Shown piece after piece: positions 1 to 62,687 of a DNA stretch of 64,000 nucleotides; within the stretch, counting starts at the first letter, position 1, and each line of letters begins with the position of its first letter. The notes below the pieces were generated by a model. It was given only the letters and a program-made list of their open reading frames with translations. It was not told where the DNA came from and searched no databases. A program made the position numbers and the translations under genes. The stretch is from a bacterium (GTDB lineage: Bacteria > Patescibacteriota > Minisyncoccia > Phycocordibacterales > JBBTRF01), in NCBI GenBank assembly GCA_037130265.1, contig JBAXTI010000002.1, forward strand, positions 26,870 through 90,869, read 5' to 3'.

Positions 1-1
1 T

Positions 2-1684
2 GGACACCATCGTCTCTCGATCCTCGACATCGATCCGCGCTCGCATCAGCCGATGGCTTCGGCCGACGGAGCTTTGCGGATTGTTTTCAATGGCGAGATT
101 TACAATTTCAAGCAGGTGAAAGAACAGCTTTCCGGGAAATATCAATTCAAGACTACTTCAGATACGGAAGTGCTCCTGTGTGCCTATAAAGAATGGGGTG
201 TGAATATGACCGAGCAGATTCGCGGCATGTATGCTTTTGCGCTCTACGATACCGCACAGCAGAAGATCGTCCTCATGAGGGATCATGTGGGGATAAAGCC
301 GCTGTACTATTATGCGAAGGCCGGAGTGTTCGCCTTTGCTTCCGAAATGAAGGGTCTCACAGCACTTCTTTCAGCCAAAGGACTGTCTCTGAAGGTACTC
401 GCGGATTCCGTGGAGTTGTTCATTACCCTCGGGTATGTGCCGTCGCCGTACACTATCTACGAAGATGTCTTTCGAGTTGAGAGATCGTCCGTTGTAGAAT
501 ACGATCTCTCGGCAAGGGCAATTTCAAAAAAGGCGACATATCGCCAAAACGTTTCAGTAGTGAAAGGGGAAGAAGAATTTGCTCAATTACTAGAAACACA
601 AGTCCTCTCGCATCTTGTTTCTGACGTGCCGGTTGGGGTATTTTTTTCCGGCGGTACGGACTCCTCTCTCGTTGCCGCTATTTTGCAGAAGCATCGCATC
701 AGTTTGGAGACGTTTAGTATTGCCGTCGATCGAAAAGCTGAGGATCAGGCTTACTTCAAGCGTATTGGTGTGGCACTGCAACTGAAGACAAATGTGTTTT
801 CGTTTGGCGTCGACGAGTTTGATGCAGTGTACGAAGAGGTGATGTCGAAGATCGACGAGCCGACGCATGACAATTCTATTTTTCCGACCTATTTTGTCTC
901 GAAGAAGGCCGCCGAAAAAGTGAAGGTGGTGCTGTCTGGCGAAGGCGGTGATGAGTACTTTTTCGGTTATCACCGCGACACGGTATTGTCAAAGTTGTCT
1001 GCAAAGCAGGATTATAATATTACCTGGCTCGACCGCCTCTTTTTCCTGATGCCGAATGTGCGCTCGAAAAATGCACTCTTTGAGCGTTTTTTTATTCTTT
1101 TTGGCCAGCCGTTTAGTTTTTATCTGCTGCATATGTCGCCTTCGAAGGACCTCGCAAGTCTCGAGGGGTGGCGTCTCTGGAAGGGTTTGTTCAGGCAAAA
1201 TGCCACGACGCCACGTCTGCTCGATCAGGACTTTTATCTCGAAGGTGATCTGCTGAGAAAGACTGATTTTGCCACCTCGTATGTTTCGATAGAGGGTCGC
1301 GTACCACTCCTCGATGTAGATGTGGTGCGAAATAGTACACAATTTTCCGATCAGAGCCTTGTTGGAGGCGTTTCGAAAGCTTTTCTGAAAAAAATATTGA
1401 CACGATATTTGCCGAAGGAGCTGGTGTATCGCAACAAAAGCGGTTTCGGCATTGATCTCCGAGGCTTGTTCAAGAGCTCGCGCCTCTTGAAAAGAGAGTT
1501 GGTCGAGGCACAGCAATATCTGAGGGAACGCTTACTGTTGCGGCCGGAGCATGAGAACGCGGAGCGCTTGATGGCTCGTTATCCAAACCTGGCTTTCGCT
1601 CTCATCTCTTTATTCCGAGTGTTGAAGAATGTTGATTTCAGTGGTGGAGCCGATGACAGTCGTTCGTCTTCTGTATTTAAATAA
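2..1684 (+). CDS. asnB: asparagine synthase (glutamine-hydrolysing) family amidotransferase; 5' end lies outside the window
   Basis: The frame is open from position 2. The translation 'GHHRLSILDIDPRSHQPMASADGALRIVFNGEIYNF...SDTEVLL...' matches the AsnB glutaminase-domain core (RLSIIDLS..GHQPM...IVFNGEIYN). The downstream synthetase domain has the SGGTDSS PP-loop. The N-terminal Cys-containing start is missing at the window edge. Confidence 0.85.
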   Translation, partial: GHHRLSILDIDPRSHQPMASADGALRIVFNGEIYNFKQVKEQLSGKYQFKTTSDTEVLLCAYKEWGVNMTEQIRGMYAFALYDTAQQKIVLMRDHVGIKPLYYYAKAGVFAFASEMKGLTALLSAKGLSLKVLADSVELFITLGYVPSPYTIYEDVFRVERSSVVEYDLSARAISKKATYRQNVSVVKGEEEFAQLLETQVLSHLVSDVPVGVFFSGGTDSSLVAAILQKHRISLETFSIAVDRKAEDQAYFKRIGVALQLKTNVFSFGVDEFDAVYEEVMSKIDEPTHDNSIFPTYFVSKKAAEKVKVVLSGEGGDEYFFGYHRDTVLSKLSAKQDYNITWLDRLFFLMPNVRSKNALFERFFILFGQPFSFYLLHMSPSKDLASLEGWRLWKGLFRQNATTPRLLDQDFYLEGDLLRKTDFATSYVSIEGRVPLLDVDVVRNSTQFSDQSLVGGVSKAFLKKILTRYLPKELVYRNKSGFGIDLRGLFKSSRLLKRELVEAQQYLRERLLLRPEHENAERLMARYPNLAFALISLFRVLKNVDFSGGADDSRSSSVFK

Positions 1685-3875: not shown

Positions 3876-3886
3876 GGGGATCGTTT

Positions 3887-9890: not shown

Positions 9891-10721
9891 CTACTTCCGC
9901 CACAGATACAGCGCGATTGGGAAGTAGTAGCTATTTTTGAATGTCTCTGCGATTTGAAAATTGAAATCACGATCAGCACCACGACCCATGAAAGACGGCC
10001 AGACTCTATTTTTAAGCTTTCTGAATTGCACTTTTTCTATGACCTCGCGCTTGAACATGGAGACACCAGCGGTGCCAGGGTAAGGTGATACGTTGCCGAA
10101 GAAGAGCTTGTTGAGCAGGCGCAGGCGTTTGTAGTGAAAGTGAGTCAATTCATTCAGGTGTGGAGAGATCTTGGCGACCAAACCTTTGGCTTTTTGTGAG
10201 AGCTTATAAATATCCGCTGGTCCAAGGATGTTACCGTCTATTTTGTATTCCGCTTTTGTGCCGACCAGATCTTCTTTGAAGCGTATGTAATCGGTAGTGA
10301 TATGTGTCGCGTTGTGTTTGATGAGAAGGTCGTGTTGAATCTCCAATCGGTTTAGTAGGGATGCATCATCGCCGTCTTGGAAGGTGATCAATTCGCCGCA
10401 CGCTTTGGCGAAGCCAAAATTGCGCGCGGCGTAACCGGCGTTGGTGTTTCGTTTCAGTATCGGATCGAGACGATCGACATCGTCGCTGGGTAAAGCATAG
10501 TAGTGGATCCGCGGATCTTCTTTTGATATTGCTTCCACAACCCGCCTCGTGTCGTCGATGCTATTGTCGTCCACCACGATCACCTCCATGTTCGTGTACG
10601 TCTGTCGAATGATTGATTCGATAGCTGTTTTGATCGTCGCACCATTGTTGTGCGCGGGAACAATGACCGAGATCAGTGGTCTTGCTGGAGTTGTCGCGGT
10701 ACTCGTCGAATCATTTTTCAT
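9891..10721 (-). CDS. family 2 glycosyltransferase
   Basis: 'ISVIVPAHNNGATIKTAIESIIRQTY..EVIVVDDNSIDDT' and 'FQDGDD' are the GT2 DXD region. Confidence 0.8.
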   Translation of the reverse strand: MKNDSTSTATTPARPLISVIVPAHNNGATIKTAIESIIRQTYTNMEVIVVDDNSIDDTRRVVEAISKEDPRIHYYALPSDDVDRLDPILKRNTNAGYAARNFGFAKACGELITFQDGDDASLLNRLEIQHDLLIKHNATHITTDYIRFKEDLVGTKAEYKIDGNILGPADIYKLSQKAKGLVAKISPHLNELTHFHYKRLRLLNKLFFGNVSPYPGTAGVSMFKREVIEKVQFRKLKNRVWPSFMGRGADRDFNFQIAETFKNSYYFPIALYLWRK

Positions 10722-13958: not shown

Positions 13959-13962
13959 AGGA

Positions 13963-15246: not shown

Positions 15247-15255
15247 GGTATTTGC

Positions 15256-16457: not shown

Positions 16458-16520
16458 ACATTCAACCTCCAACTTCAATAATTGTCCCCTTCTTCCAAAT
16501 CTGCTATTCTAAAGCCTCAT

Positions 16521-19405: not shown

Positions 19406-19466
19406 TTCAGAATTGTAGCATGGCTGATATATGCACGGTGCCGCTCCAGTGTTGTATAATGCTTCA

Positions 19467-20102: not shown

Positions 20103-20135
20103 TCCTGAGCCATCAATATTCGTTATTTTTCGTGT

Positions 20136-21077: not shown

Positions 21078-21089
21078 TTGCCTAGTATA

Positions 21090-22073: not shown

Positions 22074-22205
22074 TTCGCTCTTCCCAACTAGCCACTTCAA
22101 AGGATTTTTAGACATATCCAAAAAGTATAAGGTGTATGGTCGGGTTTGTAAAATATTAAGCTCGGACTGAAAAGGTGGCACCTTCGGCTTCGGTGCGGTA
22201 TAGTT

Positions 22206-50000: not shown

Positions 50001-53000
50001 CTCGGAGTCACCGGTGCTACTACTCTCTCCTCAACTCTCAATGTCACCGGCCTCACCACCCTTGGCAACGCTTCTACTACCCAGATCGGCTCAACCGGTT
50101 CTGCGTACTTTGCGACGAGTGGGGGGAATGTGGGCATCGGGACGACATCGCCTGGTTCGAAACTTGATGTAAACGGAGATATCAATGCGAACACTTATTA
50201 TCGTTATAAAGGCGGGATATTTGTCAACGCATCATCAACTAAACAGAATATGTTCGTCGGTATGGGTGCTGGAAATCTCACCACAACTGGAATTGGTAAT
50301 ACTGCGATTGGATATAATTCTGGCGCTGCACTAACAACTCAAAATGCCAGCATTAATCCTTTTCCAGTTCAAGCTGACACATTCATTGGAACGAACGCTG
50401 GCGCAGCGAATACTTCAGGAGATTCTAACGTTTTTGTAGGTTACAATGCTGGCGCAGTAAATACTTGTGGTCGCTCGACAGTTGCAATCGGTGCCTATGC
50501 TGGGGCGAGCTATGTGAGTGAGCCTGGATGTCCAGATATTGAAAATGGACTAAACGTCTTTATCGGTTCAGCTGCTGGACAATATATTACTGCTGGTTTG
50601 CATAACGTCTTTATTGGTGAAGATACTGGGCTACTCATGCAAAGTGGCTCGAACAACACCTTCCTTGGTTCGCATGCGGGCACAGGAATACTTACTGGCA
50701 ATGAAAGCACATACATCGGCGGTAGTGCTGGAGATTTCGCTTCAACTACTGGTGATGGAAACATCGGTATCGGAGTAAGATCTGCTCTATATCTTGATGG
50801 TTCCGCACAGTATAACGTTTTTCTTGGGAATGGCGCTGGCGCAGGTACTGAGGCTAATCCTAACGTAGCTTCGTTTAACACAGCTGTTGGTACTGGGGCA
50901 GGTTATCTGTTGACTACAGCCACTGGCGCAACTTTCTTGGGCTATCAAGCTGGATTGCAGGTCACCACTGGATACAGTAACACTCTTGTCGGTTATCAAG
51001 CCGGGTGGAATCTAGTGAGCGGTGTAAATAACACCTTCTTGGGTTATCAGGCTGGTTATAATACAACTGGTTCAGCAAATATTTTCCTTGGTGATCAGGC
51101 GGGAGCTTCTAATACTACTGGCTCAAACCAGTTTGTGGCCGGTGGAGATCATGCAAACTATCTCATTAGCGATGTATATTTCGGTCGAGGTATAAACAGC
51201 GCGACTCCTAGCACGTACACTATCCACGGAACTGGTGGCCTCGGTACAAATATTACTGGTGGTGATATCAATATTGCTGGTGGAGCAGGAACAGGATCTG
51301 GAGTGGGTGGAAATATCATTTTCCAGACTTCGAATACTGGGAGCTCAGGAACTACTTTGAATACGCTCTCCGAAAAAATAAGAATTACTAATTCTGGGAA
51401 AATAGGCATCGGTACTACAACCCCATGGAGGACGCTCTCCGTGAACGGATCATCCGATCTCGGTACCAACGCTCTCGCTGGATACTTCACCGCAACCTCG
51501 ACCACCGCTTCCACCCTCCCATACGCTTCCACCACCGCACTCTCCGTCTCCGGAGCTTCATACTTCACCGGCCTTTCAACCTTTGCCAACCTCCTCGCCA
51601 CCGGATCTTCCACCCTCCAGAACTTCACCTTCGTGAATGCTACTGGTACCTCAGCTACCACCACCAACTTCTTTGCTACTACTGCATCTTCTACTAACCT
51701 CTTCGCAAGTACCGCTACATTCAACGCCGCTTCAATTGGTACCACTCTTTCAGTCACTGGCCTTACCACTCTCGGCAACGCTTCTACTACTCAGATTGGT
51801 TCAACTGGTTCTGCATACTTTGCGACGAGTGGGGGGAATGTGGGCATCGGGACGACGACGCCAGATGGAAATTTAACTGTATATAATCCGTCAGGAGCAA
51901 GCACAGTAGATATTATGGGAAGTAGTGCTGGGTCATTGCTTAGGATTTCCCAGGGAAGCACTTTGGCTCAAGGAACAATTGATTTGGGAGTACACTCACC
52001 ACAGGCTGGTTTATTCCGTAGTGGCGGCACAAGTGGATTTGTTGCGTACGATACTGGGACTGGTGACACTATATTGAATAATGTTTTCGGTGGATCTAGT
52101 TTGTTGAGATTAAATTACGGTGGGACTACGGCTTTGGCAATAAATAGTAGTGGCAACGTCGGCATCGGCACCACCTCTCCTGGCCAGAAGCTTTCAGTGG
52201 CGGGAGATATCTTGGGTAATGTCCACATCGGTACATACTTCACTGCAACCTCCACTGCCGTGGCTTCTACCTTCCCATACGCCTCAACCACTGCACTCTC
52301 AGTCTCTGGAGCTTCATACTTCACCGGCCTTTCAACCTTTGCCAACCTCCTCGCAACCGGCTCCACCACCCTCCAAAACTTCACCTTCGTAAATGCAACA
52401 GGAACTAATGCAACGACAACGAATTTCTTTGCAACTACGGCGAGTTCAACTAATCTTTTTGCTTCAACTGCCACCCTCAACACTGCTTCAATTGCAAATA
52501 CTCTCAATGTCACCGGCCTCACCACCCTTGGCAACGCTTCTACTACCCAGATCGGCTCAACCGGTTCTGCGTACTTTGCGACGAGTGGGGGGAATGTGGG
52601 CATCGGGACGACGAGCCCGACGACGGCTTTGTTGGCAATCCAAAATAGTTCTGGACATTCATTCGATATATTTAGCACCGCAAATGGTTCTGCTGGGACA
52701 GCGATGACGATCAATGTAAATACTAGTTCAGCAAAAGCTCTGCAGATCAATTCAAATACGACAGACACCCCAATTACTGTGACTCACGTAGATCCTGGAA
52801 ACGTCCGAAATGCGGATATTTTCGGTATCAATATAAGTGAGACCCTAAACTCGATTGGCAATATCGGTGCCAATGATTACAAGTACGGTGGCGGAAACTT
52901 TGAGGTAACACAAAATGCTTCACCAGCTACTGCAAAAGATGTGTTCGGTGTTCGAGGAGTTTCAACAGCAAACAATGTTAATTTTACTGCGTACGGCGGA

Positions 53001-56000
53001 TATTTTAGTGGTAACTCAACGAACGGTACAGCTTACGGTGTCTATTCAGCTGCCGGAAAGAACTATTTTAACGGCAACCTCGGCATCGGCACCACCACTC
53101 CAGGCCAGAAGCTTTCGGTAGCGGGGGATATTTTGGGTAACAATATTATCGGCTCATACTTCACGGCGACTTCGACAACCGCTTCCTCGACTCTCAATTC
53201 CGCCCTTGGCATCGGCACGACAACCCCAAGTGCACGTTTGGCGATCACTGGATACGGCACCGCTGACACTGGCCGAGCTTTTGCGATCGCCAATAGTTCA
53301 AATGCTGAAAAGCTTTACGTGACAGACAGTGGCAAGACACGATTCAGTAATTTTGTGGCAATTAACTCTGATCCAAGCACAAACAACGGCACCGGCGCGA
53401 CTCTGTACGTAAAGCAGACTACGGGCTCGACAGGGTTCCCGTTCCAGGTTGTGAACACTTCAGATACAAACCTGTTCAGTGTAGATACATCTGGAAATAC
53501 AAACACAGCTGGCTCCGTCACCGCTTCTGCAAATGGATTCATTACTTCGTCCAGTGGAGGCGCTGCCTTCTTGCGCTTGACGCATACCTCCGGACGCTCA
53601 TTTGAAGTTCGCAGTAATAGTTCTTCGTATTTCTCTATCTACGACGCGACAGCTTCTGCTGATCGGTTGGTTGTGGCTGGCATTGGCACTGTTGGTATCG
53701 GCACCACCACCCCCTACGCTCAACTTTCTATTGTCAGCGGTGCCGCAGCCACCACCACTCTTGCCCTCAAGCCAGCCGCATCTCAAACCGCCAATATCCT
53801 GGATATCTACAGCAATGACGCAACTCCTGTCTTGAAATCGGTCATCACAGCGGCGGGCAAGTTCGGCCTCGGCACCACCTCCCCTTGGCGCACCCTCTCC
53901 GTGAACGGCTCATCAGACCTCGGTACCAACGCTCTTGCAGGGTACTTCACAGCTACTTCATCAACTGCCTCAGTCTTCACATATGCATCGACGACCGCAA
54001 TCTCTGCATCGGGTTCGGCATACTTTGCTACGAGTGGGGGAAATGTGGGTATCGGCACCACCTCTCCTTGGCGAACTCTCTCGGTCAACGGCTCATCCGA
54101 CCTCGGTACCAACGCTCTCGCTGGTTCCTTTACCGCAACTTCTACGACTGCCACTTCCACCTTTGCTGGCTTTATTGACGTCAATGGTACCGGCTCCAAT
54201 GCCACTTCCACCTTTGCTTCAAATCTTTGGGTGAAGGGTGCGATGAAGATCGGTACAAACTCGATCTATCTGAATGGTGCAGCGACTTCCACCTTCGGTG
54301 CAGGTATCAATCTCACCACTGGCTGCTTCTCGGTGAACGGTACTTGTGTTGGTGGTTCGAGTGCGGCAGTGGCAATTGGTAGTGCTATTACTGGCGGTAC
54401 CGCTGGCTCAGCGCTTTTCGTGGACGTTTCTGGAAATATTGCTCAGGACAATACGAATTTCTTCTGGGACAACTCGAGCAAATATTTAGGAATCCAAACT
54501 GCCACCCCAGGGTATCCTCTTGATGTAAATGGCACCGCTCATGCGACGACCTTGAACGCGGGCACCATTACCGACGGTGCAGGCTTTACTGTTACCGGAG
54601 GCACTATTGGTGGGGGTGTATGGAACGGCACAGCAATCGGTACAACGTACGGTGGCACTGGTATTAACTCTTCAGGCTCAACTGGTGTGGCTCAGATATC
54701 TTCAGGAACCTGGAGCGTCGGAGCTATCGATATTAGTTCCTCAAGCAATGTCACGGGCACATTGTCAGTGGCAAATGGCGGTACTGGCGCGACCTCATAC
54801 ACCGCTGGGTCAATTACTTTCTCAGATGGTACGAATCTTACGCAGGATAATGCAAACCTGTTCTGGAACAACTCGAGCAAATATTTAGGAATCCAAACTG
54901 CCACCCCAGGGTATCCTCTTGATGTAAATGGCACCGCTCATGCGACGACCTTGAACGCGGGCACCATTACCGACGGTGCAGGCTTTACTGTTACCGGAGG
55001 CACTATTGGTGGGGGTGTATGGAACGGCACAGCAATCGGTACAACGTACGGTGGCACTGGTATTAACTCTTCAGGCTCAACTGGTGTGGCTCAGATATCT
55101 TCAGGAACCTGGAGCGTCGGAGCTATCGATATTAGTTCCTCAAGCAATGTCACGGGCACATTGTCAGTGGCAAATGGCGGTACTGGCGCGACCTCATACA
55201 CCGCTGGGTCAATTACTTTCTCAGATGGTACGAATCTTACGCAGGATAATGCAAACCTGTTCTGGAATAATTCCACAAAGGCTTTGGGAATTGGCGATAC
55301 TGCTCCTGGTGCGAAGCTTTCGGTAGTGGGTAATGCATCGATTGGTTATGCGACTGGTCAGACCGCGCCGACAAACGGATTGTTAGTGGCTGGTAGTGTC
55401 GGCATCGCCACCACTTCTCCAAGCCTCGCAACGTTTACTGTTGAGGGAGGTTCAGGTGCCACAACAGCTTTCTTCACAGGGAGCGTCAATAGCTATCAGG
55501 AGGTGCTTAATCAAAATCGAAGCAATGGTACGAGTGCTTCGACTGACTTTGTTGCAGTAAACAATATCGGTAATGCAAGTTCTTACTACGTGAATTTGGG
55601 TATTAATAGTTCTGGTAATGCCGACCCTTCTTACACCCTCTTCTCCGCAAATGACGCCTACCTATACTCGAGTGATTCAGCCTTAAACCTCGGTACTGCA
55701 AGCACTACCAACACGAACGCAGTCATCAAATTCTTCACTGCTGGCACGGTCGCTGGCAAGGAGCGTGCCCGGTTCAGTTCGACGGGTAACTTCGGCATCG
55801 GCACGACCTCCCCTGGCCAGCTCCTTTCAGTCGCAGGTGATATTTTGGGCAACAATATTATTGGCAGCTACTTTACGGCGACGAGTACGACAGCGACATC
55901 GACCCTCGCTGGGGGATTTACCATGGGTTCAAGTGGTCTTAATGCGTATGCAAACGGCAAGGTTGGCATCGGCACAACCACCCCACAGTGGCTGCTCAAC

Positions 56001-58466
56001 TTGCAGTCATCGACCGCTCCACAGCTTGCTTTGTCGGCTGGTGCAGGTATAGCACAGTGGGCATTTAGAAATGCCGGTGGCGACCTCTACTTTTCTACCA
56101 CCACCACCGCCGGTACAGCGACCACGAGCACCGCCGCTTTCTCGGTCTCTGGTTCCGGCTTCGGTACCACCACTCTTCGCGGGTTGACCATCTCTGGCCA
56201 GGCAACCTCAACTTCGAATGTCGGCTTCAATCTCACAGCGGGTTGCTTCGCGGTGAACGGCACTTGTGTTGGAAGCAATAATGGTACTTCTCAGTGGACC
56301 ACTACGGGTTCAGATATTTACTACACCACCGGCAAAGTGGGTGTAGGCACCACAACTCCATGGGCTAACTTCTCAGTGGGTACTCATAACCTGGCGATCA
56401 CCACACCGTCTTTCGTGATTGCTTCTTCGTCGGCGGCCCTCGCGACGTCAACTCAGTTTATTGTCACAAATGGCAAGGTCGGAATAGGTACTTCGACTCC
56501 AAACTGGATGCTCCAGGTGGCGAACACCCGTCCGTCCTTTGCGCTTTCTGACACCAATGCCGGTGCCAACTTGAAACACTGGACACTTTCGTCGCAGGGC
56601 GGTAATTTCTACTTTGCAACATCTTCCGATGCGTTGGCAACATCGACCACCCCGGCAGGCATGTTTAATAGCAGTGGTTGGTTTGGTATCGGTACCACCT
56701 CACCATGGGCACCGCTGTCGGTTGCCGGTATTAGTGCGGCTACTTCTTTCTACGCCACCGCGACTACTTCGACTTCTACTATGGCCGGCAGCTTGAATGT
56801 GGGTAACGGTGCGCTCTTCTACGATTATGCCGGTGCGTACACTAGTATCGACAACTTGCAGATCGGTGCGATGGCTTTCGATACCAACGCCGGTGCTGTG
56901 AGCTGGGCAGATATGCCAATCACTTCAGCGGCTGCCGCAAGTACTACGGAAAGCTACACCGCACAGTTGGGAGGTAATGCCGTGCTCACTATCTACGGTG
57001 AAGCTGATGGCGCCGGCGGCGTGAACACCCTCCGTGTTGGTATCGGTACCACCTCTCCGGCTGGTGCTGCGGCTGGTCCGCTCACCATGGCTTCGGGGGC
57101 GTATGTTACTACCGGTGGTACTTGGACCAACGCTTCGAGCCGAGCTGGGAAGGAGAATTTTACAGCACTCGATTCACTTGATGTGTTGCAGAAGATCAAC
57201 GCCCTTGATGTGACCCGATGGAATTACAAGAGTGAGTCAGCAGGTACTACTCATATTGGTCCAGTGGCAGAGGACTTCTACGCTGCGTTTGGTACTGGTA
57301 GTGGTCCAGGTTCTATCTCGACCATCGACCCTTCCGGTGTCGCGCTTATTGGTATACAGGCGCTGTCTCGAGGCTTTGATATCTCTCATGCAGGTACAAC
57401 CACCCCTTCTATTCAGTCACTCTTTGTGGGCACCACCACTCCGGCTCTTTCGATCGACGCTGCTGGCAATATCGGTATCGGTACTTCCTCTCCGGCATAC
57501 AAGCTTCATGTGTTAGGTGATATCGCGGCAACTTCTTTTGTAAATATCAGTACACGTGAGGCCAAGAAGGATATTAGCTATCTCTCAGCAGCGGAAAACG
57601 AAAGCGCACTGAACAAAATAAAGGGCCTCAATGTTGCGACGTATCGATACAATATTGAGTCGGAAAGTAACCCGCTTCGACTGGGTCTCATCGCTGAGGA
57701 GGCACCTGCCGAGATCCTCGCGGCTTCAGGAAAGGGTGTGGATATTTACAAGCTTTCAACCTTTATCCTCGCCGGAGTGAAGGCACAGCAGGTGAAAATC
57801 GAGTCCCTCGAATCTCGAGTCGCGCACCTCGAGGCGGTGCAGGGCGGTGGTTCAACATCGAATGGTGCCGCCGGCATTGCCGAATATCTCAGCTCGATGG
57901 GCGCCCAGCTCTCCGCTTCGGTGTCACGATTCCGCAATGTCCTCGCTGAGTCCCTCACCGTCGGTACTGCCGAGAAGCCATCGGGCATCACTCTCTATGA
58001 CGAAGTCACCAAGCAGCCATACTGCTTGAAGATTTCTGGTGGTGCACCGGTGAGTGTGCCTGGCGAATGTGCTGCAGTATCTGCAGGCGGTACTTCAGGT
58101 ACCACTAATACCACGACAGGCGGGACCACTCCTGGTGGTTCAGGGACTACGACTACTCCAGTGGTAGGTGATACCGTTGCACCGGTCATTACAATCAATG
58201 GCAACAACCCGGCAAATATCGACAAGGGGGCTTCGTATAATGACCTCGGCGTAACCGTGACCGATAATATCGATAATAACCTCGGTATTACCACCACAGG
58301 CGATCAGATAGACACCACCGTTGCAGGCACTTATACTGTTCATTACAGTGCGACAGACGCAGCAGGGAATACCACAAATGCAACTCGCACGGTGATTGTG
58401 TCAGAAGTCTCTGTACCGAGTGCGGCTCCTGATGTCTCTGTGTCTACGAGCACAACTACTCCATAA
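44034..58466 (+). CDS. giant (4810 aa) repeat-rich secreted/anchored surface fibre protein with two tandem peptidase-S74-like intramolecular chaperone segments and a C-terminal DUF5011-like Ig domain
   Basis: It is a single uninterrupted ORF with an N-terminal hydrophobic segment. About 4300 aa of Gly/Thr/Ser/Ala/Asn-rich degenerate repeats follow, built on 'GNVGIGTTSPGxKLSVAGDILGN' and 'WRTLSVNGSSDLGTNALAGYFTATS' modules. A 'LSVANGGTGATS' motif is present. Residues ~4366-4445 (NASSRAGKENF...IGIQAL) and ~4505-4600 (NISTREAKKDI...ESRVAHLE) each carry the S-x-R-x-x-K Ser-Lys dyad pattern and downstream blocks typical of tail-spike chaperone domains. The C-terminus 'VITINGNNPANIDKGASYNDLGVTVTDNID..GTYTVHYSATDAAGNTTNATRTVIV' is DUF5011-like. 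Confidence 0.85.
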   Translation: MKRVFHTISSSVKKAFLVFFLLNFVFSPVFNDILLSSNLGAPLAASVAEAAFNQQINYQGKLTDTSNVAVSNGSYNIEFKLYTSLTGGTAIWTETWCKGTSCSGTGTDSRVTVSNGLFSTMLGSTTALTGVDFNQPLYLGVNIGGSASTPTWDGEMTPRKILGAVPAAFEAKRLNGLNDTQFLRTDTTNATSTASTFITLTQSGAGNILNLVGQGSASVFTALSSGNVGIGTTSPGQKLSVAGDILGNNIIGSYFTATTSTATSTFKGLSATAIAANKYITSDGTFQFTSPYAGTLNVTTQQIGQNAILSATSQTGKIFSFVSNDTLATISTQPGVPLVLNTAGSERIRIGTAGLVGIGTTTPWRTLSVNGSSDLGTNALAGYFTATSSTASVFPYASTTALTVSGTNGLQLASALNGPLQANGGLVSATTSVGVLYGGTGLTSAPSYGQLLMGNASNGYTLSATSSLGLLGSSTVSSLTSSYVPKWGGSAFSNSNLYDDGTNIGIGTTTGLSKLTVNGIARFNSNQDPGDYFYTNGISSDGRIEFRSADNGNGGNQRIFMSSGYSTGCVGFGNSADSASNNSLSCGGSTGNSIVATPGALSMVSVNIGGIPGVGTTKGLNIATPYSASGISTSSNSMVDISTFSVIANAATGQRPGIHFTALQYAFGVGDTYAGAGDGYSTRAMTIASSTEIGIGTSTPYAKLSLLGTSATMSTFALVPKASQTANILDIYNTASTPVLTSVITAAGKWGIGTTSPGQMLSVGGDILGNVHIGTYFTATSTAVASTFPYASTTALSVSGASYFTGLSTFANLLATGSSTLQNLTFINATGTNATTTNFFATTASSTNLFASNLAVGGNVLTTSGGNVGIGTASPNAKLHVSAPLDDLAPPALGTISANTSAYFTNQNPLYGLMVGSLTGGPTYLQVQRTDSATAYSLLLNPNAGNVGIGTTSPATTLSVAGSGYFTTGIGAGVLNTTTGTIKASVSYDTSDSTGLYKINGSTMLSASTTNANYFFGTSPATLQTTFSGTNNFGLGLNDLNANTTGSGNVAMGRDAMLANTTGATNVAIGYLAFRNATTSGSDNVAIGNLALAGTASVANTGSNNVAIGPSALFANTSGASNVAIGPSALASNTTGQFNIGIGNQAMTSNAAGQNNTVLGVSSMKYTKTGNYNVAIGTSANQYNMSATSTTIVGEEAAQGVNNVSYFQNVTALGYRSLYAITTADDTTAVGYGSGGSVTSGVQNTFVGSNSGGGVTTGSGNTLIGYNTTATGATISNAIAIGSGASVGCSNCAVLGGTSGSAVIVGVGTSTPYAKLSIQNGVAATTTMALVPAALQTANILDIYNTASTPVLTSVITSAGKWGIGTTSPGQMLSVGGDILGNVHIGTYFTATSTTVASTFPYASTTALSVSGASYFTGLATLGNASTTQIGSTGSAYFVTSGTGSVGIGTTSPATTLSVVGSIYNTGGIGVGKLNTTANTIDLGVGATGATSGLYKINGTTVVSASSTLSNFFFGTLPPTLSTTMTGSNNNGIGAGALNSLTTGLENNAIGVNAAANLTTGQYNIAIGRDAMLANTVGNRNIAIGYLADRNATSSSVDNIMIGQSAGAGVAASGRISTSIGNIGIGNSSLKLVTSGTYNTAVGYGTASNLADGSQNMFFGAFSGAAMTSGGGNAAIGYNAMGLTTSGSNNLAVGTNSLMGNITGIRNVCVGTGCSQYNQSATSTVAIGYAAAQGSSNYSAQGIVAIGDAALSSVTTASDYNTAIGYQAGYSNANGTGNTYIGASAGVNNTSGSNNIMIGRATDFAGNISYYMNIGNFLYATSTTAGSAFGSFGIATTTPSARFSIKGLGTGTGRLLAFSDSSNVERLTMFDNGNVGIGTTSPWRTLSVNGSSDLGTNALAGYFTATSTTASTLPYASTTALSVSGASYFTGLSTFANLLATGSTTLQNFTFVNATGTSATTTNFFATTASSTNLFASTANLNAATIGTTLGVTGATTLSSTLNVTGLTTLGNASTTQIGSTGSAYFATSGGNVGIGTTSPGSKLDVNGDINANTYYRYKGGIFVNASSTKQNMFVGMGAGNLTTTGIGNTAIGYNSGAALTTQNASINPFPVQADTFIGTNAGAANTSGDSNVFVGYNAGAVNTCGRSTVAIGAYAGASYVSEPGCPDIENGLNVFIGSAAGQYITAGLHNVFIGEDTGLLMQSGSNNTFLGSHAGTGILTGNESTYIGGSAGDFASTTGDGNIGIGVRSALYLDGSAQYNVFLGNGAGAGTEANPNVASFNTAVGTGAGYLLTTATGATFLGYQAGLQVTTGYSNTLVGYQAGWNLVSGVNNTFLGYQAGYNTTGSANIFLGDQAGASNTTGSNQFVAGGDHANYLISDVYFGRGINSATPSTYTIHGTGGLGTNITGGDINIAGGAGTGSGVGGNIIFQTSNTGSSGTTLNTLSEKIRITNSGKIGIGTTTPWRTLSVNGSSDLGTNALAGYFTATSTTASTLPYASTTALSVSGASYFTGLSTFANLLATGSSTLQNFTFVNATGTSATTTNFFATTASSTNLFASTATFNAASIGTTLSVTGLTTLGNASTTQIGSTGSAYFATSGGNVGIGTTTPDGNLTVYNPSGASTVDIMGSSAGSLLRISQGSTLAQGTIDLGVHSPQAGLFRSGGTSGFVAYDTGTGDTILNNVFGGSSLLRLNYGGTTALAINSSGNVGIGTTSPGQKLSVAGDILGNVHIGTYFTATSTAVASTFPYASTTALSVSGASYFTGLSTFANLLATGSTTLQNFTFVNATGTNATTTNFFATTASSTNLFASTATLNTASIANTLNVTGLTTLGNASTTQIGSTGSAYFATSGGNVGIGTTSPTTALLAIQNSSGHSFDIFSTANGSAGTAMTINVNTSSAKALQINSNTTDTPITVTHVDPGNVRNADIFGINISETLNSIGNIGANDYKYGGGNFEVTQNASPATAKDVFGVRGVSTANNVNFTAYGGYFSGNSTNGTAYGVYSAAGKNYFNGNLGIGTTTPGQKLSVAGDILGNNIIGSYFTATSTTASSTLNSALGIGTTTPSARLAITGYGTADTGRAFAIANSSNAEKLYVTDSGKTRFSNFVAINSDPSTNNGTGATLYVKQTTGSTGFPFQVVNTSDTNLFSVDTSGNTNTAGSVTASANGFITSSSGGAAFLRLTHTSGRSFEVRSNSSSYFSIYDATASADRLVVAGIGTVGIGTTTPYAQLSIVSGAAATTTLALKPAASQTANILDIYSNDATPVLKSVITAAGKFGLGTTSPWRTLSVNGSSDLGTNALAGYFTATSSTASVFTYASTTAISASGSAYFATSGGNVGIGTTSPWRTLSVNGSSDLGTNALAGSFTATSTTATSTFAGFIDVNGTGSNATSTFASNLWVKGAMKIGTNSIYLNGAATSTFGAGINLTTGCFSVNGTCVGGSSAAVAIGSAITGGTAGSALFVDVSGNIAQDNTNFFWDNSSKYLGIQTATPGYPLDVNGTAHATTLNAGTITDGAGFTVTGGTIGGGVWNGTAIGTTYGGTGINSSGSTGVAQISSGTWSVGAIDISSSSNVTGTLSVANGGTGATSYTAGSITFSDGTNLTQDNANLFWNNSSKYLGIQTATPGYPLDVNGTAHATTLNAGTITDGAGFTVTGGTIGGGVWNGTAIGTTYGGTGINSSGSTGVAQISSGTWSVGAIDISSSSNVTGTLSVANGGTGATSYTAGSITFSDGTNLTQDNANLFWNNSTKALGIGDTAPGAKLSVVGNASIGYATGQTAPTNGLLVAGSVGIATTSPSLATFTVEGGSGATTAFFTGSVNSYQEVLNQNRSNGTSASTDFVAVNNIGNASSYYVNLGINSSGNADPSYTLFSANDAYLYSSDSALNLGTASTTNTNAVIKFFTAGTVAGKERARFSSTGNFGIGTTSPGQLLSVAGDILGNNIIGSYFTATSTTATSTLAGGFTMGSSGLNAYANGKVGIGTTTPQWLLNLQSSTAPQLALSAGAGIAQWAFRNAGGDLYFSTTTTAGTATTSTAAFSVSGSGFGTTTLRGLTISGQATSTSNVGFNLTAGCFAVNGTCVGSNNGTSQWTTTGSDIYYTTGKVGVGTTTPWANFSVGTHNLAITTPSFVIASSSAALATSTQFIVTNGKVGIGTSTPNWMLQVANTRPSFALSDTNAGANLKHWTLSSQGGNFYFATSSDALATSTTPAGMFNSSGWFGIGTTSPWAPLSVAGISAATSFYATATTSTSTMAGSLNVGNGALFYDYAGAYTSIDNLQIGAMAFDTNAGAVSWADMPITSAAAASTTESYTAQLGGNAVLTIYGEADGAGGVNTLRVGIGTTSPAGAAAGPLTMASGAYVTTGGTWTNASSRAGKENFTALDSLDVLQKINALDVTRWNYKSESAGTTHIGPVAEDFYAAFGTGSGPGSISTIDPSGVALIGIQALSRGFDISHAGTTTPSIQSLFVGTTTPALSIDAAGNIGIGTSSPAYKLHVLGDIAATSFVNISTREAKKDISYLSAAENESALNKIKGLNVATYRYNIESESNPLRLGLIAEEAPAEILAASGKGVDIYKLSTFILAGVKAQQVKIESLESRVAHLEAVQGGGSTSNGAAGIAEYLSSMGAQLSASVSRFRNVLAESLTVGTAEKPSGITLYDEVTKQPYCLKISGGAPVSVPGECAAVSAGGTSGTTNTTTGGTTPGGSGTTTTPVVGDTVAPVITINGNNPANIDKGASYNDLGVTVTDNIDNNLGITTTGDQIDTTVAGTYTVHYSATDAAGNTTNATRTVIVSEVSVPSAAPDVSVSTSTTTP
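54468..55267 (+). repeat. perfect tandem duplication of a ~399-bp (133-codon) unit inside the giant ORF
   Basis: The two ORF-track entries 54577-54888 and 54976-55326 have identical translations offset by exactly 399 nt. Direct comparison shows sequence identity from about 54468 to about 55267. Confidence 0.8.
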
Positions 58467-58471: not shown

Positions 58472-60565
58472 ATGCACACTTACTTCTCTAAAATTTGTTT
58501 CGGCGTCAGTCTCACGGTTCTTTTATTGTGCAGTGTGGTTCCTGTGTATGGAGCTGCAAAAATCAATACACCAGTGACTGGTCAAATGAATACAGGGCTT
58601 GTTGGGTACTGGACATTCGATGCTCCTGATACGAGTTTTGTATCGAATACTGTTACTGACAAGTCGGGAAGTGGTAATACCGGAACAATGATCAGTATGG
58701 CTACAAGCACCTCACGAGTCCTCGGCAAGCTTGGACAGGCACTCTCTTTTGATGGGGTGGCGAAATATATCTCATTGCCAAATCTCGATAGGCAGGCCCC
58801 TTTGTCCATCGCTTTTTGGACAAAAAGAGGGAGAACCGGGCAGGCGAGTGACAACATTATTGGGGGGAGTTGCGGATCGTGGGGGATTGGATTCAATGCA
58901 AATAATACACTTTTTTTGACAAACACGTGCGTGAATGTCGCAAACTCAACGGGTACTATTGCGGATACTACAAAATGGCATCATGTAGTCGTCACCTACG
59001 ATGGTTCGAATGCTCGTTTTTATTTCGACGGAGCTCTGGATTCTTCTCCGGTGTATGCAAGCGGTACGTTCAATAGTAGTGCGGTGGCGTATACGATTGG
59101 CAGAGTAAATGTTACTGCCTATTACAAGGGTTCGCTCGATGATGTGCGTGTGTACAGTAAAGTTTTGAGTCAGAGAGAGGTGACCACTTTGTATACACTT
59201 GGCCAAGAAACCATCCAGAAGTCACAGAATAATAAGGTGACTAGCGGCCTGACGCATCTGTGGACATTTGATGGTGCTGATCTCAATACAATTACAAAAA
59301 CCGTGTATGATCGAGCTGGGACCACCAACGGTACTATTGTGGCTTTGGCGACAAGTACTCAGTTGGTAAACGGCGCTCTTGGTCAGGCTTTTAATTTTAA
59401 TGGAACTAGTCAGTATGCTTCTTTAGCCGATATTAATACAGCCCTTAATCCACCGGCAAGTATTGCTCTATGGATAAAGCGCGGACAAACCAGCGCTGCC
59501 GCTGATGAGGGTATAATCGGGTACTCCGGTTCTGGATGCACCGGTCAAAATGTGTGGGGGGTCGGTATTGCTTCTGGAGCGAATGCGAATAAACCATTTC
59601 TTACTGAGGTTGGTATTGGCGCGCAGTATCCAACAGGCACTATTACCGATCGTAATTGGCATCATTTGGTACTAACGCTAGATGGTACGAATATTCGTTT
59701 CTATATTGATGGAGTTTTGGACTCCACGGTGGCAAATGCTACTACCTTTACCTGCGTTGCTTCTTCTGCGTTTGCCATTGGAACAGTTAATACTAGTGGT
59801 TGGTACAAGGGAGCGGTCGATGACATCCGTATGTATAATAGAGTTTTGTCTGCGAATGAGGTTAAAAGTCTCTATTCGATTGGTAAATCTACCATCCAGA
59901 AATCACAGAATACAAAGGTAAATACGGGGCTTGTTGGACTATGGTCTTTTGATGGGGCAGACATGACTTCAACTGTAGCCACCGACCGAAGTGGCAATGG
60001 TTATAATGGCACACTCACGAACATGACCCTCAAGAATGTAGTCACCCCAGGAAAGATTGGCCAGGCTCTCCAGTTTCAAGGTGGTTCGGCGTATATACTC
60101 ACCGCTAACGATATTATGAGTAATCCGACCGGTCTAACGATCGCATTTTGGATGAAGTCGGCCACTATCCCTGCATCAACCCAACGCGTGTTCTCCGTTG
60201 AAGGAGCTTACGTGATCACTCTGACCACGGCCGGCAAACTGCAGGGCATTGTGGATGGTGCAGAAGCCGAGTACGCGCAGACTTCTGTTATCAGCGATAA
60301 CAAGTGGCACCACGTCGCGTTTACGCATAATGGCGCAATTGCGGGTGGAAGGATCTATGTCGATGGGGTGGCGAGTAGTACGTTTACGGGTTCCTCGTAT
60401 AGTGGATTCTATAATATTAACTCTCTGACACGCCCTGTCGCCATCGGTGGAAATGTTTCCCCGAACCCCATCTCGCCATTTATTGGCTCGCTCGACGATG
60501 TTCGGCTGTATAATAGAGTCATCACCAATGCAGAGATCACTCGTCTCTATAGCATAGGAAAATAA
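58472..60565 (+). CDS. secreted protein with three tandem LamG-like (concanavalin A-like lectin/glucanase, Laminin_G_3-type) domains
   Basis: A signal peptide is present. Three repeats each begin 'GL(V/T)G(Y/L)W(T/S)FDGAD' and end 'DDVR(V/M)Y(S/N)(K/R)VLS..E(V/I)..LY'. It lies 5 nt after the giant ORF stop. Confidence 0.8.
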   Translation: MHTYFSKICFGVSLTVLLLCSVVPVYGAAKINTPVTGQMNTGLVGYWTFDAPDTSFVSNTVTDKSGSGNTGTMISMATSTSRVLGKLGQALSFDGVAKYISLPNLDRQAPLSIAFWTKRGRTGQASDNIIGGSCGSWGIGFNANNTLFLTNTCVNVANSTGTIADTTKWHHVVVTYDGSNARFYFDGALDSSPVYASGTFNSSAVAYTIGRVNVTAYYKGSLDDVRVYSKVLSQREVTTLYTLGQETIQKSQNNKVTSGLTHLWTFDGADLNTITKTVYDRAGTTNGTIVALATSTQLVNGALGQAFNFNGTSQYASLADINTALNPPASIALWIKRGQTSAAADEGIIGYSGSGCTGQNVWGVGIASGANANKPFLTEVGIGAQYPTGTITDRNWHHLVLTLDGTNIRFYIDGVLDSTVANATTFTCVASSAFAIGTVNTSGWYKGAVDDIRMYNRVLSANEVKSLYSIGKSTIQKSQNTKVNTGLVGLWSFDGADMTSTVATDRSGNGYNGTLTNMTLKNVVTPGKIGQALQFQGGSAYILTANDIMSNPTGLTIAFWMKSATIPASTQRVFSVEGAYVITLTTAGKLQGIVDGAEAEYAQTSVISDNKWHHVAFTHNGAIAGGRIYVDGVASSTFTGSSYSGFYNINSLTRPVAIGGNVSPNPISPFIGSLDDVRLYNRVITNAEITRLYSIGK

Positions 60566-60589
60566 ATTACGCACGTTTGAAGAAAACAC

Positions 60590-60598
60590 TGCTATAAT
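60590..60598 (+). promoter_or_regulatory. extended -10 element TGCTATAAT upstream of the second LamG gene
   Basis: Read directly. It lies 13 nt before ATG 60612. An identical 12-mer, CTGCTATAATTA, sits at 62690-62701. Confidence 0.35.
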
Positions 60599-60611
60599 TA
60601 ATTCCACTCTA

Positions 60612-62687
60612 ATGATCAGAGAGACTTACAAAAATTCCTCACCTCTGGCAGTTTTATTCCTGCTCGGGACCATTTTCTTGCCGATTTTTGCCCACGCATC
60701 AGCGAAGGTGAATGTCTTGGCTCGACCGAAAAACACCTCAGGCCTCATAGGGTATTGGTCTCTGAATGGTGCGGATATGAACGCTACAACTGCATTCGAT
60801 CGTAGTGGAAATGGATACGACGGGACTTTTCAAGCCATGGGCCTCAGGAATGTTATATCGGGAAAAGTCGGACAAGCTCTTTCTTTCGATGGTTCAACTG
60901 CGTATATTTCACTTCCGAACCTTGATCGTCAAGCACCTCTTACGTGGTCATTTTGGGTAAAGCGAGCAAGATTGGGCCAGGCGAACGAGGATTTTTTTGG
61001 CGGTGACAGTAGTGGTGCGTGGGGTTTTGGATTCAATGCTGACAATACGATGTTTCTTACAAACGTCGGAATTAACAGCGTGAGTTCGACTGGTGCCATT
61101 GCAGATACAGACTGGCACCATATTGTGGTGACGTATGATGGATCAGACGTCAGTTTTTATTTTGATGGAGTTTTGGACTCGGCGCTGAGCTATTCCAGCG
61201 GCACGTATAATAGTAGCGGTGCCGCATATGCAATCGGCAGGGTGAATGTCAGTGCATATTTTGAGGGTAGGCTTGATGAAGTGCGCATGTATGATCGTGT
61301 ATTGGCTGCCCCCGAGGTGAGGACTTTGTATCAGGACTCGGCAGCGAAAATTTTAGGTCCATCGTCTGGGAACTCTAATGTGTCTAGTGGTCTTATTGGT
61401 TTTTGGTCTTTCAATAAGGAGGATGTGGTAAATGGAGCGCTTGTCGATCGAAGTATTTCGGGAAATACAGCATATCTTCAAAATATTGCTACTTCAACGG
61501 TTTACAGCGCTGGTCGTATTGGGCGAGGCCTTACTTTTGATGGTTCTGATGACTATGCGGTGACAGGCGCTACGACCTGGGGTATTACGAACACTCTTTC
61601 GATGTCTGCGTGGATTAAGACAACGGCTAATGCTGTTTCGATCGCTGAGCTTGGGCGCGTCACTGTCTTGGACGAGGCTTTGCTGTACATTCATAATAAC
61701 AGTGCGGCAATCTTCTTTTCTCAAGGGGCTGGTGTATATACTGGAGTATATGGTTCTAGGCAGGTCAATGACGGTCAGTGGCATCACGTGGTCGCTGTTT
61801 CGACTGGGCCAAGTATTGCCTGTGCAAATGTAAGGATATATGTGGACGGTGTTCGTGATACTGAGAATTGTATTACTGAAAATGTGTCGAGTCTAAGTGA
61901 CGCATCGCCACGCAGATTCTTTATTGGTTGGCGAGCTTGGGGTGGTGGTACCTCTGAGATATACAATGGTAGTGTCGATGACGTGCGTCTGTATGGTCGT
62001 GCGATAAGTGCTAGTGAAGCTCTGCAGCTGTACCGCATGGGAATTACTACAAAAGCCAATGTTTCGCAGAATACTAAGGGTCGTAACGGTCTCGTGGGTC
62101 TATGGTCTTTTGACGGGGCCGATATGGTGGCCGGGACAACAGCGTATGATAGGAGTGGTAATGGGTATGATGGCATATTGAGTGGTCTGTCTGCTCCGAA
62201 GATTGGCGTGGGAAAAATTGGTCAAGCGCTTCGGCTGCATGGGACGAGCGGTTATGTAAGTGTCTCCAATCTCGATATGAACACCTTAAGTACTTTTGGT
62301 TGGATTAACACGACTGTAGTGGGCAATCAGGTTATCGTGGCGACTCTGGCAAATGGTGGGTGGTCATTCTTCCTAGGGGCAGGTAATAACCTCACATTTC
62401 TCAAGAGAGGTATCGGTGGGGTGACTTCAAGTGCTACTATCGGGACTAATGGCTGGCATTATGTCGGGGTTACCTATGATGGTGCGACGGCAAAATTTTA
62501 CATCGACGGTGTTTTGGATAGTTCAAATGCCTATAGTCAGACATTCAACAATGGCTCCGTTGGGTACGGTTTGGGTGGTATTGAGATCGGTGGATACACC
62601 GTCACTGGCCGACTTGATGATGTTCGCGTCTATAATAGGGTCCTCACGGCGAGCGAAATTAGAACGATGTATAACCAAGCTAAATAA
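60612..62687 (+). CDS. secreted triple LamG-like domain protein, paralog of 58472-60565
   Basis: It has the same signal peptide plus three-repeat organisation (GLIGYWSLNGADM..., DDVRLYGRAISASE..., DDVRVYNRVLTASEIRTMY). Confidence 0.8.
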   Translation: MIRETYKNSSPLAVLFLLGTIFLPIFAHASAKVNVLARPKNTSGLIGYWSLNGADMNATTAFDRSGNGYDGTFQAMGLRNVISGKVGQALSFDGSTAYISLPNLDRQAPLTWSFWVKRARLGQANEDFFGGDSSGAWGFGFNADNTMFLTNVGINSVSSTGAIADTDWHHIVVTYDGSDVSFYFDGVLDSALSYSSGTYNSSGAAYAIGRVNVSAYFEGRLDEVRMYDRVLAAPEVRTLYQDSAAKILGPSSGNSNVSSGLIGFWSFNKEDVVNGALVDRSISGNTAYLQNIATSTVYSAGRIGRGLTFDGSDDYAVTGATTWGITNTLSMSAWIKTTANAVSIAELGRVTVLDEALLYIHNNSAAIFFSQGAGVYTGVYGSRQVNDGQWHHVVAVSTGPSIACANVRIYVDGVRDTENCITENVSSLSDASPRRFFIGWRAWGGGTSEIYNGSVDDVRLYGRAISASEALQLYRMGITTKANVSQNTKGRNGLVGLWSFDGADMVAGTTAYDRSGNGYDGILSGLSAPKIGVGKIGQALRLHGTSGYVSVSNLDMNTLSTFGWINTTVVGNQVIVATLANGGWSFFLGAGNNLTFLKRGIGGVTSSATIGTNGWHYVGVTYDGATAKFYIDGVLDSSNAYSQTFNNGSVGYGLGGIEIGGYTVTGRLDDVRVYNRVLTASEIRTMYNQAK

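Follow-up and report, generated by a model that had tools for sequence, protein, structure and literature searches.

A chaperone- and pilin-like cassette beside a giant tail-fibre-like gene, and a separate glycan locus, on a Paceibacteria chromosome

Surface systems of two kinds come closest to the locus described here. For Ca. Mycosynbacter amalyticus, two filaments have been solved and an usher-less donor-strand pilus has been proposed (Troman et al., bioRxiv 10.64898/2026.03.03.709456), whose parts are the pilins PamA, PamB and PamE, the single-domain tip pilin PamT, the PapD/FimC-like chaperones PamC and PamD, which end in a transmembrane helix, and PamR, an RbmA-like, transmembrane-anchored protein with two FnIII domains and an extra N-terminal strand. 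According to the same preprint, the two-domain Pam pilin consists of an N-terminal beta-sandwich, a linker that is the donor strand and, at the C-terminus, a truncated immunoglobulin (Ig) domain; the pam operon is consistently accompanied by a tail fibre-like protein, which has no role in the model, and close relatives carry an MFS gene and a MazE-like gene upstream of the operon (bioRxiv 10.64898/2026.03.03.709456). The preprint stresses Saccharimonadia and Microgenomatia, and mentions neither Paceibacteria nor WxL or DUF916. In Firmicutes, the commonest WxL cluster is made up of one WxLIP together with a pair of WxL proteins, of which one is small and the other is large and has host-binding domains, and in an AlphaFold2 model of the complex a loop of the WxLIP turns into the strand by which the WxL beta-sandwich is completed (PMC10599100). 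In this work we analysed a stretch of 64,000 nucleotides of a bacterial genome (hereafter the window; assembly GCA_037130265.1, contig JBAXTI010000002.1, positions 26,870 to 90,869), in which a small cassette of chaperone-like and pilin-like genes is followed directly by the gene of a giant, tail-fibre-like surface protein.

The window belongs to a 165-kb metagenomic contig (ENA ERZ4222710 NODE_28). By its proteins, the nearest named organisms are Taylorbacteria, Nomurabacteria and Nealsonbacteria (Patescibacteria, Paceibacteria/Parcubacteria group). A glycan locus lies at about 1.7-24.5 kb of the window and the surface-fibre locus at 39.6-62.7 kb. An earlier sequence-only reading had joined the two into one attachment system and had considered the arrangement previously undescribed. 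Our data point rather to two separate envelope loci on a Paceibacteria chromosome, that is, an usher-less donor-strand appendage on which a giant fibre is mounted and a strain-variable glycan locus, an explanation that we hold to be fairly probable.

The cassette and the giant fibre

The surface-fibre locus is a run of genes on the forward strand that begins at position 39583, with intergenic gaps of 6-83 nt, in the order p149, p224, p329, p251, p480, the giant of 4810 residues and two proteins with Laminin_G_3 domains. Every product of this run has an N-terminal hydrophobic, signal-like segment. To follow the run in other genomes, we used an alignment of the chaperone-like protein p329 as query in a scan of one genome per species, which returned 80 loci from Paceibacteria-type metagenome-assembled genomes (MAGs), a few of whose labels look like misbinning or generic naming, and the window proteins were mapped by tblastn onto 85 cassette loci. 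The chaperone gene was present in all 85, p224 and p251 in 84 each, p480 in 78 and the fibre N-terminus in 64, with p224 directly upstream of the chaperone in 84 of them. The order p224, p329, p251, p480 and fibre N-terminus recurs in about 80 species, the missing cases being mostly short contigs.

The fibre itself is conserved next to the cassette in a peculiar manner. In 59-62 loci, the gene after p480 starts with a homologue of the first 175-245 residues or so of the giant (40-88% identity), and it begins 0.1-2.7 kb past p480 in about 92% of those loci whose sequence extends far enough downstream. Conservation is confined to this N-terminal module; the fibres differ in length and in the remainder of their sequence: intact fibre genes in other loci encode 962-2482 residues, and many more run past the end of the locus. 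A conserved N-terminus with a variable remainder is what one would expect if this domain docked onto a partner that is itself conserved. In one locus (L027), the cassette is followed by an ABC ATPase-like protein and two FtsX-like permeases, possibly preceded by a periplasmic adaptor, as judged by N-terminal sequences.

The protein p329 (40746..41735, +) begins with a signal peptide and ends with a transmembrane helix, with two Ig-like beta-sandwich domains between them. An AlphaFold2 model based on 36 homologues (predicted local distance difference test score 88.4) places the helix at residues 298-321 and shows a low-confidence loop at about residues 151-170. The best Foldseek matches of this model in the PDB are Enterococcus faecium WxLIP entries (9i1y and 9i25, E 1e-12), the second of which is a WxLIP bound to a long WxL protein; they are followed by RbmA and the chaperones CsuC, CfaA, FimC and Caf1M (E 1e-9 to 1e-6), as well as CupB2 and PapD-type chaperones. 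By sequence, the similarity to WxLIP is marginal, with E 0.004 against EfmWxLIP1 by phmmer and E 0.004 against the Pfam family WxLIP_PGBD (DUF916), where the score of 17.6 bits lies under the cutoff of 27.3 bits; there was no Pfam match to DUF3324. Hence, p329 fits the description of PamC and PamD and that of WxLIP equally.

The two genes that flank the chaperone gene encode pilin-like proteins, each with one pilin domain of about 170 residues. The signal peptide of p224 (40047..40721, +) is followed by a short N-terminal strand that is conserved (D-x-VVVTL-x-V) and by a single pilin-type beta domain. In p251 (41746..42501, +), a signal peptide is followed by a conserved N-terminal extension of about 55 residues, disordered in the monomer model, and by a chaperone-usher-type pilin domain whose modelled fold resembles that of the pilin CsuA/B. 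Profile alignment of the two families by hhalign (probability 99.4%, E 8.5e-22, 32% identity over 165 columns) identifies these pilin domains as paralogues. Moreover, p251 matches the NCBIfam model NF058579 ("CPR-type pilus protein PamT", CPR being the candidate phyla radiation) with E 9e-10, as do 34 of the 36 members of its family, and on this profile evidence it is a distant homologue of PamT and not an equivalog. The sequence-only reading had described a WxL-like partner at this locus, a label that our results do not bear out: none of the 36 members of the p251 family matches the Pfam family WxL, their alignment has one conserved T-W-T-V and neither a C-terminal W-x-L nor a dual W-x-L motif, and WxL chains are absent from the top fold matches of p251.

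The last cassette protein before the fibre, p480 (42509..43951, +), is a candidate base anchor, with a signal peptide, a conserved N-terminal strand (V-x-L-x-V) and a C-terminal transmembrane segment at residues 459-477. Its matches to FN3-type Pfam families are weak (Pur_ac_phosph_N and PhoD_N, both at E 0.003), and it appears PamR-like in architecture only. Searches of PDB sequences with p251 and p480 returned no significant match. Most homologues of p480 carry a Cys-rich motif (G-C-N-N-N-x-I-C-E ... S-C-P-x-D-C) past the N-terminal strand, and in its place (residues 30-70) the window protein has a linker rich in Ser, Thr, Pro and Gly. Thus, of the anchoring partners that had been proposed from the sequence, the DUF916-like one stands at the level of the fold (p329) and the FN3 one as a transmembrane anchor with weak FN3-like matches (p480), and the WxL-like one is not confirmed. 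The remaining small gene, p149 (39583..40032, +), is the first of the run and was defined as an open reading frame (ORF) with a gene call; its product is small, with an N-terminal hydrophobic segment, has no Pfam, NCBIfam or PHROG match and was found by tblastn in 14 of the 85 cassette loci, which belong to close relatives.

The giant (44034..58466, +) is a real, Ser/Thr-rich protein of 4810 residues, as had been read from the sequence; Ser and Thr make up 27.4% of it, against 12.9% of the other window proteins, and p224 and p251 reach similar values (27-30%). It carries 28 copies of the motif G-I-G-T-x-x-P. Its tail-fibre character is seen in PHROG matches to tail spike (E 5.6e-43) and tail fibre (E 8.5e-10) families, in sequence matches to PDB chains of the Bdellovibrio protein bd2133 (8ond) and of 8ojn, and in Pfam matches to Peptidase_S74 (PF13884) in two stretches, followed by a C-terminal Bact_surface_Ig-like domain. 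The N-terminal module (44034..44768, +; residues 1-245) comprises a signal sequence and a conserved domain at about residues 47-175 with the motif INYQGKL. The two S74 domains, of the intramolecular-chaperone type, stand in tandem (57135..57833, +), starting at about residues 4368 and 4506, and each has a Ser-x4-Lys motif (SSRAGK at 4368, STREAK at 4506), which we take to be the autocleavage dyad of endosialidase and tail-fibre chaperone domains. The S74 tandem precedes more sequence, including the Ig-like domain, an unusual position, since such domains normally form the C-terminus and are removed by cleavage.

The internal DNA repeats of the giant gene diverge (61-97% identity), and one pair of 300 nt is 97% identical. 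The S74 tandem and this pair were noted at positions 57135-57833 and 54435-55133. The exact length of the repeat-rich 14.4-kb gene comes from one short-read assembly, and those Logan contigs that derive from run SRR12676966 break off within it; such a length may be sensitive to assembly.

After the giant come two secreted proteins (58472..62687, +), each with a signal-like N-terminus and with three ConA-like lectin domains of the Laminin_G_3 family (E 9e-73 and 1e-67 in Pfam), in agreement with the lectin modules noted earlier beside the giant. Laminin G homologues were found near the cassette in just two or three loci (L080 and L072 among them), and these proteins are accessory and clade-specific.

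The glycan locus and the genes around it

Matches to Pfam, here and throughout, come from a scan of those ORFs in the window that plausibly encode proteins and span 100 residues or more. In the glycan locus, they identify Wzm, Wzt with Wzt_C, six glycosyltransferases (of families that include GT2, GT1 and GT11), two AsnB-like amidotransferases, a methyltransferase and a ligase with Wzy_C and TPR domains. The core of an ABC-transporter pathway (GT2, GT1, an AsnB-like amidotransferase, Wzt with Wzt_C, and Wzm; 9891..16092, -) is collinear in a close relative (L086), with 71-90% identity. The sequence-only reading had called the pathway complete; among the scanned ORFs we found no priming phosphoglycosyltransferase family (Glycos_transf_4 or Bac_transf), and on that evidence the window does not contain the full pathway.

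Between Wzm and the ligase lies a set of genes for a GT2 protein with GtrA, a multi-transmembrane protein, a methyltransferase, another GT2 and a GT11 (16482..22181). The whole 16.1-22.2 kb segment is missing from L086, which has a gene for an 88-residue helix-turn-helix protein there, and a part of it, at 20-22 kb, has a lower GC content (0.425); it looks like a strain-variable glycan island. The GT2 and GtrA gene is of the polyprenyl-phosphate sugar synthase type. The multi-transmembrane protein (orf634; 17666-19405, -), with about eight transmembrane segments, belongs to an unannotated family and probably starts at Met56, which would give it 579 residues instead of 634. It had been read as a PMT-like GT-C enzyme. 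An exhaustive phmmer search of 1.84 billion proteins found 40 representatives of its family, some of them fused to GT4 or GtrA domains, with an invariant D35-E36-x-x-F39 past the first transmembrane segment; the protein and 22 homologues matched no GT-C family of Pfam (PMT, PMT_2 or other) and, in sequence and profile searches, no PDB chain. What fits the PMT-like label is the multi-transmembrane topology and the D-E-x-x-F motif. The fusions to GT4 and GtrA domains and the divergent GT2 and GtrA gene next to it are in keeping with a glycan role. A glycan-related membrane enzyme is plausible, membership of GT39 stays putative, and the family is a candidate for a new GT-C-like glycosyltransferase family.

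The ligase gene (22206..24488, +) encodes 760 residues with a Wzy_C domain of the O-antigen-ligase family (Pfam E 3e-21) and C-terminal TPRs. The protein is likely a ligase because an ABC-transporter pathway needs no Wzy polymerase. The signature domains PglL_A and Wzy_C_2 were absent from it in the Pfam scan. By sequence, WaaL, PglL and WsaB are not reliably separable, and hence an activity on proteins is possible. Homologues with about 40% identity over the full length occur across Paceibacteria/Parcubacteria. The block of ligase, MurB and SecA (22206-28453 in the window) is kept in L086, L088, L092 and L093, across distant Paceibacteria lineages. On contigs of Taylorbacteria, Lloydbacteria and Campbellbacteria the ligase is followed by MurB and SecA, and the gene content upstream is another on each: TagF-like and CMP-nonulosonate genes on one, a Wzx flippase with GT1, GT9 and methyl- and sulfotransferases on a second, and large surface proteins on the third. 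Being widespread, linked to MurB and SecA and preceded by differing glycan genes, the ligase behaves as a general, class-wide enzyme that interchangeable glycan gene sets would feed. As a member of this class-wide block, the sugar locus is not to be read as specific to the fibre.

Another gene of the glycan locus has a partial copy beside it: an ORF of 236 residues (3887-4597, -), with no Pfam match, shares 55% identity with residues 31-268 of the neighbouring 752-residue GT2 protein (1677-3935, -), and this similarity identifies it as a duplicate of the uncharacterised N-terminal module of that protein. In the same region, an ORF of 246 residues (4755-5495, +) aligns solely with positions 213-296 of the 302 positions of the PfkB profile, that is, its last third, and may be a truncated gene or a pseudogene.

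From the end of the glycan locus (24488) to the start of the fibre locus (39583) there are 15.1 kb with 13 genes, most of them housekeeping, as the sequence-only reading had it. By Pfam, the ligase is followed by MurB, SecA, a Cls/PLD-type synthase, enolase, a MazF toxin and an MFS transporter, and the further genes include iPGM, an AI-2E transporter, MYG1, Obg and GatB. The MazF/PemK toxin gene (31107-31505, -) adjoins the MFS gene, and an antitoxin is not annotated; one cassette-bearing relative (L067) has three MazF genes in tandem (9002-10355). An ORF of 305 residues (33015-33932, -) that overlaps the iPGM gene on the opposite strand, without a family match, is probably not a real gene. 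The 10 kb past the window encode enzymes of sugar metabolism (GAPDH, RpiB, Rpe, transketolase and FBA).

Assembly model and alternatives

In the explanation that we favour, p329 would hold the incomplete Ig-like folds of the pilin-like p224 and p251, and p480, whose N-terminal strand is conserved, would through that strand tether the assembly to the membrane. The giant, mounted there by the conserved domain at its N-terminus, would present its variable distal part, probably trimeric and folded with the help of the S74 domains, to host or partner cells, with the lectin-like proteins as accessories specific to the clade. At the other locus, the ABC-transporter pathway and the 6-kb island would feed the lineage-wide Wzy_C-TPR ligase.

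Several observations weigh against this explanation. The match of p251 to PamT scores 38 bits against a curated cutoff of 240 bits, and neither p329 (E up to 1) nor p480 (E up to 0.1) matches a Pam-named NCBIfam model; models beyond PamT are unmatched by the cassette proteins as a whole, in a library for which the presence of PamA and PamB models is not established. The cassette has no two-domain major pilins of the PamA/PamB type, and so it may not build a long pilus. Donor-strand contacts are proposed from folds and conservation, and the N-terminal module of the giant is a candidate docking domain by its synteny. A pilin-like or chaperone-binding nature of the giant's N-terminal domain was considered and found no support in sequence, as hhalign gave probabilities of about 2% and 1% with the pilin and chaperone families. 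Scans of the fibre locus for promoters and terminators gave signals not above chance, which offers no help to co-transcription as an operon, and four or five loci (including L027, L053, L055 and L085) carry the cassette without an adjacent fibre.

The loci of this last kind are what would be expected if the cassette built a Pam-type pilus by itself and the giant were an independent adhesin, adjacent through the clustering or co-regulation of surface genes. The N-terminal domain of the giant, unlike pilins or chaperone, and the lack of a role for the tail fibre-like neighbour in the Pam preprint agree with such independence. Nevertheless, the near-constant position of the fibre gene close behind p480 and the restriction of its conservation to the N-terminal 175-245 residues, the docking-domain pattern, make it rather unlikely. 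A wall complex of the WxL type that forms no filament, in which a WxLIP-like protein would hold p224 and p251 as peptidoglycan-binding modules that fix the giant to the wall, is considerably less probable. It would account for the best structural match of p329, including the WxL-bound entry, for a layout of one WxLIP and two small partners like that of the commonest WxL cluster, and for a loop that completes the partner's beta-sandwich, as in the published complex model; the p251 family, however, lacks both the WxL Pfam match and the dual motif, and sequence homology favours PamT. As to a remnant prophage tail fibre, which the tail-spike and tail-fibre PHROG matches and the S74 domains bring to mind, we reject it as exceedingly improbable. 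No integrase, capsid, terminase, tail-tube or baseplate genes were found by Pfam or PHROG scan in the window or over the following 10 kb, no tRNA genes were found in the 64-kb window, the flanks are housekeeping genes and the gene order is kept in about 80 species; the earlier view of the fibre locus as chromosomal and not part of a prophage is thereby upheld.

The proposal of a single system, in which the glycan locus is dedicated to glycosylating the fibre and the Wzy_C-TPR ligase decorates the giant, the pilins or both as an O-oligosaccharyltransferase, finds no support in synteny across relatives. Within 10 kb of the cassette we found no homologues of the window glycan genes in 80 species, save a 28%-identical Wzy_C paralogue in one locus (L075). 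Apparent Wzt matches near the cassettes of 12 loci were discarded, being generic ABC ATPases with 22-28% identity in the nucleotide-binding domain only. In the other direction, no cassette proteins occur within 10 kb of the ligase on the Taylorbacteria, Lloydbacteria and Campbellbacteria contigs examined. The nearest relative (L086, 79-93% identity) has both loci in its genome bin, which could be taken in favour of one system, but they lie on different contigs and its glycan locus, otherwise collinear, lacks the island with the supposed GT-C enzyme, while cassette and fibre are kept. The two loci are thus independent in synteny, and neighbours only through clade-specific synteny. Furthermore, the ligase is far commoner than the cassette (more than 4249 matches against 416, from searches of unequal sensitivity whose counts are not strictly comparable, a reservation that tempers our own explanation), it is tied to MurB and SecA, and it is served by a Wzx flippase in one lineage and by an ABC transporter in another. 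The 13 mostly housekeeping genes in between and the absence of PglL_A and Wzy_C_2 from the ligase point the same way, and we regard the single system as unlikely. Glycosylation is a narrower question: the fibre or the pilins may possibly be among the substrates of the ligase, given their richness in Ser and Thr, the S/T/P-rich linker that replaces the Cys-rich motif in p480 and the TPRs, which could bind protein acceptors. On Ser356 of the M. amalyticus pilin PamA there is additional density, which fits a modification (bioRxiv 10.64898/2026.03.03.709456). In a paper on Saccharibacteria type IV pili, the glycosylation sites of CPR pilins are only predicted, with no direct evidence, and CPR glycosylation is called unexplored. 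O-glycosylation of the subunits by the class-wide Wzy_C-TPR ligase, with strain-variable glycans, is in our view less likely than the assembly proposed above.

A life attached to other microbes is generally assumed for ultrasmall CPR bacteria, and little is known of how they recognise their hosts and keep hold of them. Conserved across about 80 Paceibacteria species that were sampled, the cassette couples chaperone and pilin parts of the Pam/WxLIP type to a huge and variable tail-fibre-like protein. Should the fibre be mounted on the products of the cassette, it would be a concrete candidate for a determinant of host specificity in a clade that is very large and uncultured; the Pam pilus family, itself newly described, would then extend, in reduced form, to another class, and the poorly understood WxL clusters of Gram-positive bacteria would be tied to donor-strand assembly.

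Relation to known systems

Glycan pathways with an ABC transporter and a Wzy_C ligase (WaaL, WsaB, PglL) share with the window Wzm, Wzt with Wzt_C, glycosyltransferases and the ligase, and the methyltransferase of the window is a possible chain terminator, as in such pathways. WsaB, an S-layer O-oligosaccharyltransferase of Geobacillus, can be likened to the window ligase, which differs from these enzymes by its C-terminal TPR domain, by the lack of PglL-specific domains and by a host not known to have lipopolysaccharide. An O-oligosaccharyltransferase of the PglL/PilO type would be recognised by a Wzy_C core with PglL_A or Wzy_C_2 domains and by an adjacent acceptor protein; the window ligase matches only Wzy_C and TPR families, and the nearest candidate acceptor lies 15 kb away.

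With the Bdellovibrio fibres (bd2133 in 8ond; 8ojn, 8onb and 8onc) and the tail fibres of phages, the giant shares a long, fibre-like form, tail-fibre modules and S74 domains and, with Bdellovibrio, a place in a cellular genome. The Bdellovibrio proteins are reportedly trimeric fibres for prey recognition. The giant differs in being far larger, in its S74 tandem followed by an Ig-like domain, in its position next to a donor-strand cassette and in a host without an outer membrane, as is the rule for CPR cells. In the literature that we searched, nothing relevant was found on giant tail-fibre adhesins in Patescibacteria.

Chaperone-usher pili, above all those of the archaic Csu/CupE type, combine an incomplete-Ig pilin with an Ig-like chaperone, and the window has both. 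Its chaperone is membrane-anchored and not free in the periplasm, there is no detectable sequence similarity, and no usher domain was found by Pfam in any ORF of the window. To the WxL clusters the likeness lies in p329, with its best structural match to WxLIP, its two Ig-like domains and its C-terminal transmembrane helix, and in the set of one WxLIP-like protein, two small beta-sandwich partners and a large protein, which in WxL clusters binds the host. The partners in the window are PamT- and Csu-like and lack WxL motifs, the conserved module of the giant is N-terminal, in contrast to a WxL domain at the C-terminus, an LPXTG protein is absent, and the Pfam WxLIP_PGBD score of p329 is below threshold, with DUF3324 undetected.

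The Pam system offers the largest number of common traits: a CPR host, hydrophobic signal-like N-termini, a chaperone with a C-terminal transmembrane helix, the lack of an usher, a single-domain pilin homologous to PamT, a transmembrane-anchored protein with an N-terminal strand and weak FN3-like matches, a co-localised tail fibre-like protein, and an MFS gene with a MazE/F-type gene in the upstream neighbourhood. Since the Pam operon already comes with a co-localised tail fibre-like protein (bioRxiv 10.64898/2026.03.03.709456), the description of the present arrangement as previously undescribed loses force. In place of two-domain pilins of the PamA/PamB/PamE type, the window has two paralogous single-domain pilins, and it has one chaperone where Pam has two. 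Sequence similarity is confined to PamT, there is no ATP-synthase neighbour, the host class is Paceibacteria, and the fibre is very large and directly adjacent to the cassette.

No paper that combines WxLIP with a donor strand turned up in the literature that we searched, and the cassette may link the WxL and Pam literatures. A bolder view would see in it a minimal usher-less donor-strand machine that mounts a giant adhesin by its N-terminus, and a bridge that unites WxL/WxLIP, Pam and chaperone-usher systems in one superfamily; we put this forward as a tentative idea. For the present, the fibre locus is best classed with the donor-strand systems of the Pam/WxLIP kind, as a reduced form from Paceibacteria that is coupled to a giant fibre.

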